From IMG/VR virus record IMGVR_UViG_3300035232_000453: 64,000 nt of DNA, one strand, 5' to 3'. Under the pieces are notes generated by a model. That model saw only the letters and a list, made by a program, of their open reading frames with translations, ran no database searches and was not told the origin of the DNA. Below, piece by piece: positions 3,447-12,207 of this stretch. Source of the stretch: a virus. The translations under genes and the position numbers were made by a program. Every line of letters starts with the position of its first letter. The first letter of the stretch is position 1.

Positions 3447-3835
3447 CTCTTACATGCATTGCAATTTTCAATACATACTAACGGAGGGTTGTCACTTTCC
3501 CATCCTTCTACACTTGTGTACTTATTATAAATTTCTAAATTTATTATATCTTCTAATGTGTGATGTTCTAGATTATTAAATTCTGGATCTTCTTTTAATA
3601 ACTTAGACATTACTGGGTCATCAAACAATGCCCTTGACTCAGTATTTAGCAAATCATTTTTAATTTCTTCTTCTGATGGCTCTTCAAATTCATGCCATTC
3701 TTTCATATGTCTTTTATCATATGCATTACTAAAAAAACAACAAGGCCAAACTCTGCCATCCGATGCTACTTCCCACATTCTGTCACCTGTATCTGGACAT
3801 ATGCAATTAGAAGAATCTATATTATATTTGCTCAT
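3443..3835 (-). CDS. stand-alone SPASM/twitch-like Fe-S domain protein
   Basis: CxC...DGRVWPCC...CxxxCxxC pattern; coupled to radical SAM gene. Confidence 0.7.
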   Translation of the reverse strand: MSKYNIDSSNCICPDTGDRMWEVASDGRVWPCCFFSNAYDKRHMKEWHEFEEPSEEEIKNDLLNTESRALFDDPVMSKLLKEDPEFNNLEHHTLEDIINLEIYNKYTSVEGWESDNPPLVCIENCNACKS

Positions 3836-4530
3836 AATAATTTATCTGCTTTTAGTTTAGATTGCTTTGTTATCAACCCATGTGGTCTATTATTATATCG
3901 AATAAATGTTTTAACGTTTATCTCATTTGCTATTTTACGCATTGTTGGTATTTGTTGCCAATTCCATTCAAATATTATAAAATTCCATATTGCGTAGCCA
4001 CCTGCTTTTGAAAATGCTGACATGTTATCCATTGCTTTCTGCCAATTGACTCCTTCTCTATATTTCCAATTAGTTTCATGCGTTGTTCCATCAATTGCAA
4101 AATTAATTTCTAACTCTCTTTTGTACTTATTTCCGATATGTGTATACCATTCTTTATTTCGAAGGGCACCATTTGTTGATATAATAACTTTCTTTGTAAA
4201 TTCAAATGCAGTAGATATAAAGTCATCAATTTGAGGATGCATCATTGGATCACCAAACTCTCCGCAGAACTCAATGCTACTAAATTGTAAGTTAGGCGAT
4301 GCAGCTAGTGTTTGCTTAAATATATTCAAATCCATATGTTTTAGGTCTAGCCAGGATTCTTTATCTCCAGTATATTCATTGGTTCTAGCACAACTACGAC
4401 ATCGTGCTTGACAATAAGTTGTTAATGCAAAATCAATTTTATGTTTAGCACCAAGATTCTTTTTTGTCACCGTAATACTCTCTTGCAAATCCATTTTCAA
4501 TAAGCATATGTCGTAAACTTTTGCCATCAA
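3832..4530 (-). CDS. radical SAM protein (core only; start uncertain, overlaps nuclease gene)
   Basis: CQARCRSC (CxxxCxxC), GEFGDP, STNG, FAIDG motifs. Confidence 0.85.
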   Translation of the reverse strand: MMAKVYDICLLKMDLQESITVTKKNLGAKHKIDFALTTYCQARCRSCARTNEYTGDKESWLDLKHMDLNIFKQTLAASPNLQFSSIEFCGEFGDPMMHPQIDDFISTAFEFTKKVIISTNGALRNKEWYTHIGNKYKRELEINFAIDGTTHETNWKYREGVNWQKAMDNMSAFSKAGGYAIWNFIIFEWNWQQIPTMRKIANEINVKTFIRYNNRPHGLITKQSKLKADKLL

Positions 4531-6907: not shown

Positions 6908-6936
6908 ACTATACTAGTAAGATAAGGTTTTGTCAA
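6908..6936 (-). promoter_or_regulatory. sigma70-type promoter with one palindrome half-site
   Basis: TTGACA-17 nt-TATAGT; spacer contains AGTAAGAT on + strand. Confidence 0.6.
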
Positions 6937-7669
6937 CCGAAATGTCTTGTTTTCTACCAAAATAGTACATATTATAGTAAACATCTATTGCAATCATGTC
7001 GTTTGTTGCAAACCAGTCATTATGTACACATGTTGGGCCTTTTACATGTAATTCACCGTCTACTATCTTCCAATCACAGTAATAATTGTTACCTAATATA
7101 GTAAAATCACTAGGTGGAGTTCTATGTATAAGATACTCTGATTGTTCTTGTACTTTTTGTATTGATTCCATACTATCAAACACTGCATTAATAGTAATAG
7201 GTCCTATTTCGCTCATACCCCAATTAGGTTGCACAATAGCACCCTTGCTTACAAATGCTTCAATCATTTCCCATGTCACACGATCACTTCCACCTAAAAT
7301 ACGTTTACCAGTAAGATCACAATCAGCAAATCCTTTGGTATTCATTAATGCATACATCTGTGCTGGTGCTAAAAATGTATGTGTATAATTTGCAAAATCT
7401 TTTAAAAAAGTAAATGCATTAAATTGTTGTACTTTAAATTCTGCACCAATACTGTATGCAGGTAATGTTTGTGTTAATAATCCTCCTGCATGTGTCATAC
7501 GTGTAACTGTAAGTATCTTTGATTTTTTGGAAATATCCTGGGCATCCAATGCCACTTCAACACATGCTTTTAGATTGTCTGGTGTTCTGTGTACTACCTT
7601 GGCAGGGCCTGTAGTTCCACTAGAGCTTATTTCAACTCCATGTGTAAGCATATGTTTGTAGTCTGTCAT
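6914..7669 (-). CDS. minimal AMP-binding (ANL/acyl-CoA synthetase-like) enzyme
   Basis: SSGTTGPAK P-loop, WGMSE, WFATND, FGRK motifs; only 251 aa. Confidence 0.8.
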   Translation of the reverse strand: MTDYKHMLTHGVEISSSGTTGPAKVVHRTPDNLKACVEVALDAQDISKKSKILTVTRMTHAGGLLTQTLPAYSIGAEFKVQQFNAFTFLKDFANYTHTFLAPAQMYALMNTKGFADCDLTGKRILGGSDRVTWEMIEAFVSKGAIVQPNWGMSEIGPITINAVFDSMESIQKVQEQSEYLIHRTPPSDFTILGNNYYCDWKIVDGELHVKGPTCVHNDWFATNDMIAIDVYYNMYYFGRKQDISVDKTLSY

Positions 7670-8697
7670 TGTTCGTACTTAGCTAAACTATTATTAATCT
7701 GGTTATTAACTCTTACAAAGGTTGTACGATTATAAACGTCTTTTATATTGTCTGCACCCACATATGTACATACACTGCGTAAACCACCCTGTATCTGCTT
7801 TATAACGCTTACAATAGACCCTTTTGCAGGTATCATTAAGTCTCTTCCTTCGTTGGGTCTATACTCTTGTTCTGTTGGATTTGTGCGGTTGTACATTGTT
7901 GTGCTTCCTAATCCATAAAAGTTTACATATTTCTTTCCGTCAATTTCAACAATATTATCACATTCTTCTGACTTAGAAACCATACCGCCTACCATCACCA
8001 TAAATGCTCCGGCGCCTATTGCTTTTGCAACATCACCTGCAGTAACACAACCACCATCGGAAATAACTCCCATGTCGTGTACTCTGGCTGCGGATGCTAC
8101 ATTCATAATTGCACTTAACTGCGGAACTCCTACACCTACTTCCGATCTTGTCCTACATGCAGCGCCACTTCCAACTCCAACTTTTAATAAGTCTGCACCT
8201 GCTTCGTGTAGTTTAGAAACAAGTTCAGGAGTAGCAATGTTACCTGCTGAAATTTTAATATGAGGGAATAAATCTCTGTAAGTTTTAACTGTGTTAACTA
8301 TACCATCTACATTAGCATATACATTAGCAATGTCAACATTAATCAATCCAATATCTGGAAACTTTGTAACAACTTCAATTGTTTTTTCTAAGTCCCACTT
8401 TTGTACACCACTTGTAATTGCAATATATTTTCTATCTTCCATTTTACCAAGTTCTTCTAAATGTTCTTCTGCTGTATATTCTTTATGTATAAATGTAAAC
8501 ACTCTCATAGGAGTAAGGATATTTGCAATTTTATATGTTCCTGTACTAAGCATATTCGAAACACACACTGGCGTTGCTTTTGCACCAAGCCAATCAATTT
8601 CAATATCTACACTTTTTCGTGTAAGTGTTTTACTACTAGCCAATGGTTCAATAAGAACATCACTAAAGTCTAATTTAATATCATTTTTAATTTTCAT
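7666..8697 (-). CDS. guaC: GMP reductase-like protein (IMPDH/GMPR family, no CBS domain)
   Basis: KLDFSDVLI, AGNI, KVGVGSGAACRTR (catalytic Cys), SDGG, EGR, GGLRSxCTYVGA. Confidence 0.8.
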   Translation of the reverse strand: MKIKNDIKLDFSDVLIEPLASSKTLTRKSVDIEIDWLGAKATPVCVSNMLSTGTYKIANILTPMRVFTFIHKEYTAEEHLEELGKMEDRKYIAITSGVQKWDLEKTIEVVTKFPDIGLINVDIANVYANVDGIVNTVKTYRDLFPHIKISAGNIATPELVSKLHEAGADLLKVGVGSGAACRTRSEVGVGVPQLSAIMNVASAARVHDMGVISDGGCVTAGDVAKAIGAGAFMVMVGGMVSKSEECDNIVEIDGKKYVNFYGLGSTTMYNRTNPTEQEYRPNEGRDLMIPAKGSIVSVIKQIQGGLRSVCTYVGADNIKDVYNRTTFVRVNNQINNSLAKYEQ

Positions 8698-8701
8698 TTT
8701 C

Positions 8702-10078
8702 TTATCCTAAATTATGTTTATCTTTTATTCGTTGTATTGCATCCAGTGTTGGAATTTTAACAGTTTTATCGTAATCAAATACTTTTGGTTTATTGATAAA
8801 ATTAAATCCAAGTGCTGTTTGGAACATAAAGTATATATGTGTTGTGTTATACAAGCATTCTAAACTTCCGTTTTTAAATATTTCCATTTGCTCTTTTAGT
8901 TTCTCTGGAATAGGTTTCTTTTTCTGATCTTGCCAAAATTTTGTATCATTTCGTGTTGCTGATCGATAATGTAATATAGTAAAATCTCTAAAGTCAGTTA
9001 CCATCTCATGAACGTATTTATTATACTGATCTATTGTCTTTTGTTTTTTAAATACTTTTATCAATTCTTCAGCACTGTAAATACTACAATGTAATGCAGT
9101 TGCTTCTAGTGGTTCGATAAATCCTGCACTTAATCCAATAAAAGCATAATTTACACCTGCTGTTTTCTTATAACATCCACTTGTGTACTCTACTACTTTA
9201 ATTGGTTCAACATCATGTCCAAGATACTTTTGTGCTTCAGCAATTACTTCATCAGATGATGCATGCTTTGTACTGTAATTATATCCTGATCCACAATTGT
9301 TTGTTTTTGGAACTTCCCACATCCATCCACTTTCCATTGCTCTTGAAACTGTATACGCTTGTTTCTTTGCAGGAAGTAAAAATGGAACTGCGGCATTAAT
9401 ATCTAACCATTCTTCATAAGGTTCAAATTCATGTTCAACAAAATCTGCAAACAAACGCCTAAAGCCTGTTGAGTCTACATAAAAGTCTGCTGTGTATGAA
9501 TCTTTTTCTCCGTGTAAACTTATTATCTTTCCATTATTGACTTCAACATCAATAATAGTATCAACTGTGCTAGTAACTTTAGTACTTTCTAAACACTTGT
9601 CTCTGAAAAATTGTCCTACATTCCTGCCATCAAAATGAAATGTATGTCTTTTAACTTCTGTAAAGTCTTGTAATTCATGTTTCATTAGAAATGCATTAAT
9701 ACTTACATCATCTACATCTATATTATCTTCTAATATTTTGTACATAATGTCAATATCTTTGTTTGGCGAGTGCTCAGGATTTCTTCTAGCATCATAATGC
9801 CATGCATCTACATACTTGTTAAACTTAGTTCCTACACCTTGCCAGTTCTCAAATAATATTCCTAACTTAACTGTGGAATTAGTTTTTTCTAAAAATTCTT
9901 TGTGGTCACCTTTAAGTATAATATCGTCTAGCGAGCCAGTTGCTCCTTCTCCTGTTCCTATAATAGGAACTGTACCACTGTGAATAACTTGTATTTCGTC
10001 AACAGATTCACTGCGTAGTATTTGATACGCTGAGGCCCAAGAAGCTGAACCGCCTCCAACTATAATAAGTTTTTTCAT
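8702..10078 (-). CDS. flavin-dependent tryptophan halogenase family protein
   Basis: GGGSAS, IGTGE, TVKLGI (catalytic Lys position), GWMWEVP (WxWxIP), FIEPLEAT. Confidence 0.88.
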   Translation of the reverse strand: MKKLIIVGGGSASWASAYQILRSESVDEIQVIHSGTVPIIGTGEGATGSLDDIILKGDHKEFLEKTNSTVKLGILFENWQGVGTKFNKYVDAWHYDARRNPEHSPNKDIDIMYKILEDNIDVDDVSINAFLMKHELQDFTEVKRHTFHFDGRNVGQFFRDKCLESTKVTSTVDTIIDVEVNNGKIISLHGEKDSYTADFYVDSTGFRRLFADFVEHEFEPYEEWLDINAAVPFLLPAKKQAYTVSRAMESGWMWEVPKTNNCGSGYNYSTKHASSDEVIAEAQKYLGHDVEPIKVVEYTSGCYKKTAGVNYAFIGLSAGFIEPLEATALHCSIYSAEELIKVFKKQKTIDQYNKYVHEMVTDFRDFTILHYRSATRNDTKFWQDQKKKPIPEKLKEQMEIFKNGSLECLYNTTHIYFMFQTALGFNFINKPKVFDYDKTVKIPTLDAIQRIKDKHNLG

Positions 10079-10584
10079 AATATCATTCCTTTTAATTTAT
10101 TTTCGTAAATATTACAAACATCTTCAAACGCTTCTTCAAAGCAGAGTTGAAATACTAGTCTAGTATTGTTATCTTCAGTAAAATGCACATTATGATTGTA
10201 GCCACCTGTGTTTAATATGGCACCTTGATTATCATAGTTTATATCACATACAAAGTTTTCGTCATCGTCATAAAAATGTGTCTTACCACCGTTATTTGTT
10301 AATGGAAAACTAATAACAGTTTGTCTTGGCATATATAAATTTTCGTATTCGTTATATCTATTTTTGTCTTTGTGTATTTTACTTCCAGATTCAGTTACAC
10401 GTAGCATCTGACATACACAATTTAGTCCTGTAGTATTAAACTTTTGTATAGTACTTGGTAATTTAAAGAAACTTATTTTATAGCTTATGTCTACAAATGC
10501 CTCTGGTGCATATGCTATTTCTAACAATTGCTCCTTAGTATTATCTGATATCATATAAGGTATTAATTTATAATACGGTTCCAT
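10075..10584 (-). CDS. putative cupin/2OG-Fe(II) oxygenase-like protein
   Basis: IHKD...HNV...RLVFQL. Confidence 0.6.
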   Translation of the reverse strand: MEPYYKLIPYMISDNTKEQLLEIAYAPEAFVDISYKISFFKLPSTIQKFNTTGLNCVCQMLRVTESGSKIHKDKNRYNEYENLYMPRQTVISFPLTNNGGKTHFYDDDENFVCDINYDNQGAILNTGGYNHNVHFTEDNNTRLVFQLCFEEAFEDVCNIYENKLKGMIL

Positions 10585-11404
10585 AAACTTCTTTCATATT
10601 TTCATACTCAGTCATTAGTTGTTGAGTAATAGGTCCTGACTTTTGTGTTGCAGTAACTCCGCCACTTGAACTTGTTATAAAAACTTCATCTGCATTATTA
10701 AATTCTTCTTGTGATATTGGTAGTCTACAAAACAGAATGCCGTTGTTTCGTGCAATGTCTTCTACTACTGTCATTGTAATACCTTTTAGAACATTTTTGT
10801 CTGCTGTGTAAATAACTTTGTTTTTGACAATGCCTACATTAAATCCTGGACCTTCTGTAACATGTCCATCTACGTCTACAAGAATAGTTGTGTCTGCGTC
10901 TGTTGGTTTGTTACGTTGGCTCATTGTTAAGTCTAGCCAAGCCATATTTTTATATTCTTGCCCATAGTAATCATCACTGACTCTGTTTGTATTTGTATCT
11001 AGATATAAATTTACAATAGGATTGTTTGCAATAGGATAACTAGGCTTGATATACATAGCAAAATGTATTGGACAGTTTTCTATGTCTCGTGGATTACCGC
11101 TTGGTGGAGCGCCGCGCCATACAAGGAACCAAACAAACGCATTTGTAACATCATTTAGTCTTTTAAGTTCCTTAACAATGGCTAATCTGTCTACATCTGG
11201 TAGCTCTAGTCCATATCGCTTTGCACTGTTTTCAAATCTTGTTGAATGTCTTTCGTAACAAAATGCTTTACCGTTATAAACAGGCATAACATCATATGTA
11301 GCATCACAGTGTATAAATCCAAAGTCCAATATGCTTGGACCAATTTCTCTTAATGGCTTATATTCGCCATCTCTGTATGCTATTAAATCTAATACATTAG
11401 TCAT
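10568..11404 (-). CDS. PLP fold-type IV aminotransferase, (R)-amine transaminase-like
   Basis: GFIHCDATYDV, KNMAWLDL (PLP Lys), TEGPGFN, LKGIT, ADEVFITSSSGG. Confidence 0.88.
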   Translation of the reverse strand: MTNVLDLIAYRDGEYKPLREIGPSILDFGFIHCDATYDVMPVYNGKAFCYERHSTRFENSAKRYGLELPDVDRLAIVKELKRLNDVTNAFVWFLVWRGAPPSGNPRDIENCPIHFAMYIKPSYPIANNPIVNLYLDTNTNRVSDDYYGQEYKNMAWLDLTMSQRNKPTDADTTILVDVDGHVTEGPGFNVGIVKNKVIYTADKNVLKGITMTVVEDIARNNGILFCRLPISQEEFNNADEVFITSSSGGVTATQKSGPITQQLMTEYENMKEVYGTVL

Positions 11405-11666
11405 CGAAATGCACCTTTTGTAATTGTGGGTCGTCTGGTAGTTTTTTCTTAAGAGTTTTTAACCTACTAATTCTCCATTCGAGTAATTTAAAATCAAGTA
11501 CCCAAGGAAAAATTGCATGTATTAGACTTCCAATACAAACAAATAATAGGAAGAAAAATTCCATTATAGCAAGTTTGAAATGCCAAAGGTATCCAACAAT
11601 TCCAGTTAAATGTTCGACATTTGCTTTATATTTTGCATCTATTAGATGCTTACGATTGAACCACAT
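11397..11666 (-). CDS. DUF6356-like small membrane protein
   Basis: HL...YLWHFKLA...IHAIFP pattern; paralog at 26092. Confidence 0.6.
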   Translation of the reverse strand: MWFNRKHLIDAKYKANVEHLTGIVGYLWHFKLAIMEFFFLLFVCIGSLIHAIFPWVLDFKLLEWRISRLKTLKKKLPDDPQLQKVHFDD

Positions 11667-12207
11667 AGTTCCCTCTCAATCTATTTCTTCTTTTTGTATA
11701 CTCATGTATATTCAGTTTCCATACTGTTTGTTGTGTATAATATAATTCCATATCAGCATGTTTTGATAATATTCCTTGCTTTGCAAGTAATCCCATAAGC
11801 CTATGATTGCGTGATGCTTTTCCATTTGAATGCTCATGATCTATGTTAGTTGTTAGGTATAACTCATTGCTAGGACACCATTCAATAAATTTTGGAATCA
11901 TTTCACGTTGTGTAATGCTATTCCAGTCGCCTTTGCCTAGTCCTTTAAAGTTATCATTATGGGGTAGTTCACAACCTCTAAACATTATGCGCCATGCATT
12001 TGGTCCTACTTCTGGTAATGGATGACAACCTGCTACTGCTACAATTTCATTGTTTACTATAGCACAAAAATATTCACCTTGCTCTTTACACCATTCATAT
12101 TTCATTGCTTTTAAACTACTGTTGTTTATATATTTTAATTCTTTTGCTTTACTACAGAATCTTTCCAACATCGAAATATGATTGTTAGTTATTATTTCTA
12201 TTTTCAT
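11650..12207 (-). CDS. putative GNAT-fold acyltransferase
   Basis: EIVAVAG, FRGCELP..FKGLG resemble the acetyl-CoA binding motif. Confidence 0.5.
   Translation of the reverse strand: MKIEIITNNHISMLERFCSKAKELKYINNSSLKAMKYEWCKEQGEYFCAIVNNEIVAVAGCHPLPEVGPNAWRIMFRGCELPHNDNFKGLGKGDWNSITQREMIPKFIEWCPSNELYLTTNIDHEHSNGKASRNHRLMGLLAKQGILSKHADMELYYTQQTVWKLNIHEYTKRRNRLRGNYVVQS

Follow-up and report, generated by a model that had tools for sequence, protein, structure and literature searches.

The window analyzed here is the whole 64,000-nt stretch of viral DNA in IMG/VR record IMGVR_UViG_3300035232_000453, in which seven minus-strand open reading frames (ORFs) lie head to tail between positions 6914 and 12207. 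From upstream to downstream, they encode a GNAT-fold acyltransferase-like protein, a small DUF6356-like protein, a fold-IV pyridoxal phosphate (PLP) aminotransferase, a small Fe(II)/2-oxoglutarate (2OG) oxygenase, a flavin-dependent halogenase, a GuaC-type GMP reductase, and a half-size ANL (adenylate-forming) enzyme, here denoted mini-ANL. In the reading we favor, to which we assign a probability of about 0.5, these genes represent the form taken in one lineage by a modular biosynthetic cassette restricted to phages, in which an amine would be made, N-acylated, and decorated in interchangeable ways. The evidence centers on four genes that travel together across related loci, namely, those for GNAT, the DUF6356-like protein, the aminotransferase most similar to (R)-selective amine transaminases, and the mini-ANL, which lacks the lid domain. 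Linkage across divergent and rearranged genomes, the operational criterion for a biosynthetic gene cluster (BGC), was found for these four core genes, but not for the halogenase if it is taken as a fixed member.

An annotation made earlier from the sequence of the window (hereafter, the original prediction) had described this region as a seven-gene operon, with all genes overlapping or within 4 nt of each other, that resembled a linked small-molecule or nucleoside tailoring pathway. We confirmed the ORFs and their packing, and all seven family assignments were checked: four by Pfam or NCBIfam, GNAT and the oxygenase by AlphaFold2 (AF2) modeling and Foldseek searches, and the DUF6356-like protein by Atlas clusters.

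Conserved core and variable slot in related loci

With the aminotransferase as query, 38 loci were identified in viral contigs (51-97% identity), and profile scans with ANL and GNAT added three more divergent loci on contigs binned in metagenome-assembled genomes (MAGs). Genes were counted in the 26 loci with full flanking coverage, in which the aminotransferase is 36-97% identical (Table 1). GNAT, DUF6356, and aminotransferase genes stand side by side wherever all three are covered, the sole exception being L032, where a halogenase gene separates GNAT from DUF6356. In every case, the mini-ANL gene follows downstream. Thus, the part of the proposed linkage that stands is the four-gene core, which is retained in 25-26 of the 26 loci; a single fixed seven-gene pathway does not, given the variable presence of the halogenase, GuaC, and the oxygenase. 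Independent occurrence in random order among relatives, which the original prediction had named as the finding that would speak against it, was not seen for the core when neighborhood conservation was examined.

Table 1. Features of the window, with the number of fully covered loci that encode each counted gene, and related features at other loci
Feature	Length	Coordinates (strand)	Loci (of 26)	Place
GNAT-fold acyltransferase-like protein (predicted)	185 aa	11650..12207 (-)	26	Conserved core (first gene)
DUF6356-like small protein	89 aa	11397..11666 (-)	25	Conserved core
Fold-IV PLP enzyme, (R)-selective amine transaminase-like	278 aa	10568..11404 (-)		Conserved core; census anchor
Small Fe(II)/2OG oxygenase (predicted)	169 aa	10075..10584 (-)	17	Accessory
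Flavin-dependent halogenase	458 aa	8702..10078 (-)	3	Variable tailoring slot
GuaC-type GMP reductase	343 aa	7666..8697 (-)	19	Accessory
Half-size ANL enzyme (mini-ANL)	251 aa	6914..7669 (-)	26	Conserved core
Gene of no recognized family	429 aa	12228..13517 (-)		Outside the conserved cassette, 20 nt upstream of GNAT
Promoter-like site: GGTTGACA, 17-nt spacer, TATAGT		6908..6936 (-)		Within the final ANL codons
Asp/Asn-hydroxylase-like gene			17	Directly upstream of GNAT
Methyltransferase			14	
Paralogous HxD..H protein			13	
B12-type radical SAM protein			12	
Second radical SAM protein			8	
Protein of no recognized family	~220 aa		7	
GTP cyclohydrolase I		G003:C1:54415-54939		
GTP cyclohydrolase I		G004:C1:23646-24131		
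GTP cyclohydrolase I		G005:C1:36022-36558		

The position between the oxygenase and GuaC behaves as a variable slot, occupied in the window by the halogenase and in most relatives by a SAM methyltransferase, a B12-type radical SAM protein, and a second radical SAM protein. Across the relatives, B12-binding radical SAM, radical SAM/SPASM, and paralogous HxD..H proteins were recorded in this slot along with the methyltransferase. GuaC is almost always encoded immediately upstream of the ANL gene. The divergent loci (36-54% identity), including L052 to L054, keep GNAT, the aminotransferase, GuaC, and ANL in a changed order and on changed strands; the 106-kb contig of L054 carries a tail sheath gene and, therefore, is phage DNA. 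Distant GNAT homologs are also encoded directly after short ANL genes. The halogenase inserted in the core of L032 represents a second lineage of this enzyme (23% identity to the window halogenase; Pfam E-value of 1.6e-67), and the most divergent cassette locus, L052, encodes an arylsulfotransferase (ASST) directly beside GuaC (L052:4405-5487, minus strand).

A protein family of ~220 aa, with no Pfam match and no sequence match in PDB, is fused to GNAT in L032 (5364-6605) and adjoins the cassette in six other loci (for example, L014:6582-7229 and L010:9476-10168). This family is confined to loci that lack both GuaC and the oxygenase. Separately, the short-form loci contain genes for a transporter of the TctA family and for another ANL enzyme (387 aa) a few kilobases from the cassette (L010:11663-13099 and L011:13474-14637).

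Scans of cellular genomes yielded no relatives of the core other than those on phage-like contigs binned in MAGs. The 5.3-kb region was unmatched in a DNA search against cultured phages, and a tblastn search of cultured phages with the aminotransferase returned nothing but IlvE or Dat sequences of bacterial type, from records that were contaminated or unrelated.

Core proteins

The 185-aa protein had no Pfam or NCBIfam match at a threshold of 0.01. AF2 modeling from 18 orthologs gave a model with a mean confidence (pLDDT) of 84, for which a Foldseek search of PDB returned 226 matches at E-values of 0.001 or lower, the top ones all being GNATs (TM-score of ~0.6). The profile of the 18 orthologs matched a single GNAT chain (3t9y; E-value of 4e-4) over residues 5-75 only. 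Thus, the protein is predicted to adopt the GNAT alpha/beta fold. Residues 88-93 (KGLGKG) fit the Q/R-x-x-G-x-G/A pattern and could form the acyl-CoA pyrophosphate-binding loop. Within this stretch, which falls in the least confident part of the model (pLDDT 59-68), only G89 is invariant, and L90 and K92 are nearly so. The predicted complex of mini-ANL and GNAT scored 0.05, a value that weighs neither for nor against binding.

The 89-aa protein scored 18.2 bits against Pfam DUF6356, under the gathering cut-off of 24.4, and its nearest Atlas clusters are viral (score of 0.92), with DUF6356 carried by 53-100% of their members, which we treat as a lead. It has the highest mean column identity of the cassette (74%) and contains a single long hydrophobic stretch along with invariant His, Glu, and Asp residues. 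A literature search on DUF6356 found nothing relevant.

The 278-aa protein belongs to Pfam family Aminotran_4 (E-value of 2.7e-32; 112.9 bits vs a cut-off of 28.5). In PDB, at least the top 20 matches are (R)-selective amine transaminases from fungi and actinobacteria (including 4ce5, 6fte, 8zm7, and 3wwh; best E-value of 1e-31), compared with 1e-14 for DAAT and 1e-8 for E. coli-type BCAT; the NCBIfam models for BCAT, DAAT, and ADCL all scored far under their cut-offs. The signature motifs HxDxTYDV, KNxxWxDL, and EGxGFN of the (R)-amine transaminases align with HCDATYDV, YKNMAWLDL, and TEGPGFN, respectively, and the RG arginine is shared as well. The Lys of YKNMAW and the Glu of TEGPGFN coincide with the catalytic Lys and the EGxGFN Glu of those enzymes. 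Unlike them, the window enzyme is phage-encoded and ~50 residues shorter, and it reads FVW at the position of the FVE motif, with Trp replacing Glu. The protein is a fold-IV PLP enzyme that, by these alignments, appears to be most similar to (R)-selective amine transaminases.

The 251-aa protein matched Pfam AMP-binding (48.6 bits; E-value of 7e-13) only over positions 170-378 of the 384-position profile. The motifs SSGTTGxPK, NWGMSE, ATGD, and GRK, corresponding to A3 (P-loop), A5, A7, and A8, are invariant or nearly so in 19 orthologs. Its best PDB matches are acyl-CoA ligases. It shares the P-loop, A5, A7, and A8 with ANL acyl-CoA ligases such as FadD, MenE, and 4-coumarate-CoA ligase, and its matches are to fatty-acid and aryl-acid ligases of this kind; unlike these enzymes, it is less than half their size, starts without the first ~170 residues (the N-terminal subdomain), and stops at GRK, the A8 hinge, so that the C-terminal lid and the A10 Lys are missing. 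This length is genuine, as more than 1000 clusters of relatives from marine metagenomes are all ~232 aa; the window gene is ~19 codons longer than those of its relatives. In characterized ANL enzymes, a lid-domain Lys is required for adenylation. No separate lid-like partner gene was recognized in the window or among the proteins encoded downstream of ANL in its relatives, and a lid acting in trans was discarded as a candidate, as neither these downstream proteins nor the 93-aa protein of the window matched AMP-binding_C.

Accessory enzymes

The 169-aa protein had no Pfam match. Its AF2 model (pLDDT of 91) matched exclusively Fe(II)/2OG oxygenases in Foldseek searches, including HrmJ, NMAD-1, ALKBH6, prolyl hydroxylases (P4H), and PiuC, and residues H71-x-D73, H131, and R142 are invariant in 15 orthologs. 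Thus, the model predicts an Fe(II)/2OG oxygenase with a double-stranded beta-helix fold, the HxD...H triad, and the 2OG-binding Arg. This fold rules out the PHROG label "DNA endonuclease V" attached to the protein.

The halogenase matched Pfam Trp_halogenase (E-value of 1e-74; 252.6 bits). Its best PDB matches are PyrH and PrnA (1e-43), followed by VirX1 (1.6e-33). In comparison with PyrH and PrnA, it retains the catalytic Lys (TVKLGILFENW), the WxWxIP motif as GWMWEVP, and the Glu in GFIEPLEAT; the flavin-binding motif reads GGGSAS instead of GxGxxG, and the protein is ~70 residues shorter than Trp halogenases.

The 343-aa protein of the IMPDH/GMP reductase family scored under both equivalog thresholds (NF003470, 6e-91, 305 bits vs 397; TIGR01305, 290 bits vs 492). 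Its alignment with human GMPR2 (260 bits) runs over the full length; the protein lacks the CBS insert and retains the catalytic Cys and Thr in ACRTR and the GMP reductase-specific Glu in YRPNEG.

A proposed pathway and its alternatives

In the cassette that we envisage, the transaminase would convert a carbonyl intermediate into an amine; because of its similarity to (R)-amine transaminases, a ketone or an aldehyde is a likelier substrate than a 2-oxo acid. The mini-ANL would activate a carboxylic acid with ATP, and GNAT would link the amine and the activated acid in an amide bond. Decoration could then follow, with the oxygenase and the halogenase acting on an electron-rich part of the molecule, which is probably aromatic or heteroaromatic because halogenases were recruited twice independently and an arylsulfotransferase is present in L052. 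The DUF6356-like protein may hold the pathway at the membrane, and GuaC may act on a guanine-like nucleotide intermediate or merely shift the purine pool. The catalytic motifs of ANL, GuaC, the oxygenase, and the halogenase are intact. More tentatively, large lytic marine myophages could possess a combinatorial small-molecule pathway of their own, in which a fixed amine-forming and N-acylating core of minimal enzymes (the 278-aa transaminase-like enzyme, a lid-less adenylating enzyme of 232-251 aa, GNAT, and a membrane DUF6356 protein) is combined, according to phage lineage, with halogenation, with methylation by B12/radical-SAM enzymes, with hydroxylation, or with sulfation. The metabolites made during infection by related phages would then form a family that varies in its decoration, halogenated in the case of the window phage.

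Several observations weigh against such a biosynthetic cassette. Neither a product nor a substrate nor a carrier protein is identifiable from sequence, and in this respect the caution of the original prediction, that no product can be assigned, still holds. Lacking its lid, ANL may be unable to adenylate by itself, which makes its activity uncertain. GuaC seems to be an ordinary GMP reductase with no explained place in the pathway, and it occurs alone in other phages, such as Cr30. Co-transcription of the genes is deduced from spacing alone. Finally, the islands that harbor the cassette are rich in unrelated enzymes (radical SAM proteins, DegT, carbamoyltransferase, and TctA), so some of the linkage could reflect the structure of enzyme-rich islands.

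One alternative, which we consider unlikely, is that, instead of producing a free metabolite, the cassette decorates a macromolecule, be it a virion protein (a tail fiber or another one), a surface glycan, or a nucleic acid. This would fit the many relatives in which the cassette adjoins a tail-fiber-like gene with an Mtd_N domain, as well as flanking genes that encode Asp/Asn beta-hydroxylase-like proteins, many radical SAM/SPASM proteins, a DegT sugar aminotransferase, and a carbamoyltransferase. In addition, prolyl hydroxylases and AlkB-type enzymes are similar to the oxygenase model, and GNATs often acetylate proteins or amino sugars. However, the best matches of the transaminase, the halogenase, GuaC, and ANL act on free small molecules or nucleotides, and the cassette of the window adjoins nrdAB, not fiber genes. 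Four large related viral contigs yielded neither DpdA nor TGT, the sole match being on another contig of the MAG that contains L054, and no candidate precursor peptide was recognized, although no systematic search for one was made.

It is likewise improbable that the seven genes are a mosaic of independent auxiliary metabolic genes in a hyperplastic island, with separate roles and no common product; should they prove to be so, the finding would shrink to an ordinary island of this kind. Lone halogenase genes are present in 65 records of cultured phages, and lone GuaC genes in several jumbo phages, so for these two genes the mosaic interpretation is true in part. Consistent with it are also the rarity of the halogenase among the 26 loci, the lack of GuaC in seven of them, and a rise in sequence identity to the nearest relative, from 92-97% to 100%, partway through the cassette, which shows internal recombination. 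This interpretation is at odds with the co-occurrence of the four core genes at 36-97% identity, which survives rearrangement, and with their absence from the cultured phages and cellular genomes searched. Furthermore, the occupants of the slot are all tailoring-type enzymes, and the halogenase was recruited twice.

A modified purine or deazapurine nucleoside pathway, in which GuaC would reductively deaminate a guanine-like nucleotide and the halogenase would act on the heterocycle, is very unlikely: it does not account for the transaminase, GNAT, or ANL, and seven loci retain the core although they lack GuaC. Reductive deamination of the kind proposed for GuaC is known in biosynthesis from ToyE (toyocamycin) and TubD (tubercidin), and GuaC stays linked to the cassette in 19 of the 26 loci and in the rearranged ones. 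QueC-like PP-loop proteins with SGGxDS and a C-terminal Cys cluster are encoded in the slot of L054 (5426-6046) and upstream in L005 (2090-2842). GTP cyclohydrolase I (FolE) is encoded 13-18 kb from the cassette in three of four large related contigs (Table 1), whereas it was not found in the window. The viral halogenase VirX1 accepts azaindoles (PMC8407142). Set against these points, QueD/PTPS and PurA (adenylosuccinate synthetase) were not found in five large related records. Deazaguanine DNA modification was rejected on these absences together with that of TGT/DpdA from the four viral contigs. A modified-purine product, as offered in the original prediction, is conceivable but has little in its favor.

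Relation to known systems and significance

We found no paper that describes the cassette and no cultured phage that carries it; viral halogenases are already known singly. The nearest conceptual precedent is provided by phage-encoded BGCs (Dragos et al. 2021), which, as summarized in PMC10452541, are rare and come mainly from temperate phages whose hosts are commensals or pathogens. Like those clusters in that summary, the cassette consists of co-localized and co-conserved enzyme genes on a phage; it differs in belonging to large uncultured marine myophages, in lacking a nonribosomal peptide synthetase, a polyketide synthase, or a recognizable core of a ribosomally made, post-translationally modified peptide (RiPP), and in having a swappable tailoring slot.

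A halogenase gene is present in ~20 of 153 cyanophages (PMC10452541), and VirX1 is a characterized viral halogenase whose natural substrate is unknown (PMC8407142). The window enzyme shares with VirX1 and the cyanophage halogenases the features of free-substrate-type flavin halogenases (Lys, WxWxIP, and Glu), but it is only ~30% identical to them, is ~70 residues shorter, and is embedded in a conserved multi-enzyme cassette. Its identity to the halogenase of Pelagibacter phage HTVC008M is also ~30%. In HTVC008M (L060, 63198-65157), the halogenase gene is overlapped at its start by a gene for a 2OG oxygenase, an arrangement that parallels the one in the window, and both lie between the terminase subunit genes. 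A halogenase-oxygenase pair common to HTVC008M and the window was ruled out, as the two oxygenases are not detectably related. The stand-alone GuaC proteins of jumbo phages XacN1 and Cr30 belong to the same family as that of the window and have the same length and catalytic residues; in Cr30, the gene sits among unrelated genes, whereas in the window it is translationally coupled to mini-ANL.

If the cassette yields a product, combinatorial biosynthesis in the style of natural products would extend to abundant uncultured marine phages, and there would be a pathway context in which to seek the natural substrates of viral halogenases. The cassette also offers an unusually small enzyme similar to (R)-amine transaminases and an ANL protein without the lid thought to be necessary for adenylation, both from classes used in biocatalysis. 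The abundance of mini-ANL clusters in marine metagenomes suggests that the system is widespread.

Locus boundaries and phage context

From GNAT to ANL, successive genes overlap by 17, 8, 17, and 4 nt, followed by a 4-nt gap and a final 4-nt overlap. Such close packing is ordinary in phage genomes and by itself is no evidence of function. The promoter-like site at the end of ANL, which matches the consensus at 11 of 12 positions, includes TCTTAC in its spacer, and has the top score of the scanned region, would mark the downstream end of the unit. Upstream, the unit probably extends past the seven genes, with the 429-aa gene co-transcribed with the cassette, because the gap before GNAT is just 20 nt, contains a Shine-Dalgarno-like AAAGG, and showed no promoter-like site in the scan. 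The 429-aa gene had no match in Pfam, PHROG, or NCBIfam (best Atlas score of 0.77) and is restricted to the nearest kin of the window.

All seven cassette genes are under purifying selection, with ratios of nonsynonymous to synonymous substitution rates (dN/dS) of 0.06-0.29 and dS near saturation. In comparison with the nearest relative (L001/L003, G001), the 429-aa gene is 76% identical, the genes from GNAT to the oxygenase are 92-97% identical, and those for the halogenase, GuaC, and ANL, like the downstream genes, are 100% identical. This step indicates that a recent recombination had its breakpoint between the oxygenase and halogenase genes.

The window is phage DNA that encodes a tail sheath protein, TerL, UvsX, SSB, and helicases, with nrdA and nrdB just upstream of the cassette. 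Its TerL is closest to those of PA5oct-type jumbo phages (55% identity), and related contigs (G002 to G006) of 146-169 kb are only 40-47% complete according to CheckV, which suggests that this phage group may be jumbo, with genomes of ~350 kb. Hence, the label "T4-like", which the original prediction had used for the phages in which such enzymes are common, is a loose fit. Outside the cassette, a 232-aa ORF at 3832-4530 on the minus strand of the window is 30% identical to a radical SAM/SPASM family often encoded in the regions flanking related cassettes.

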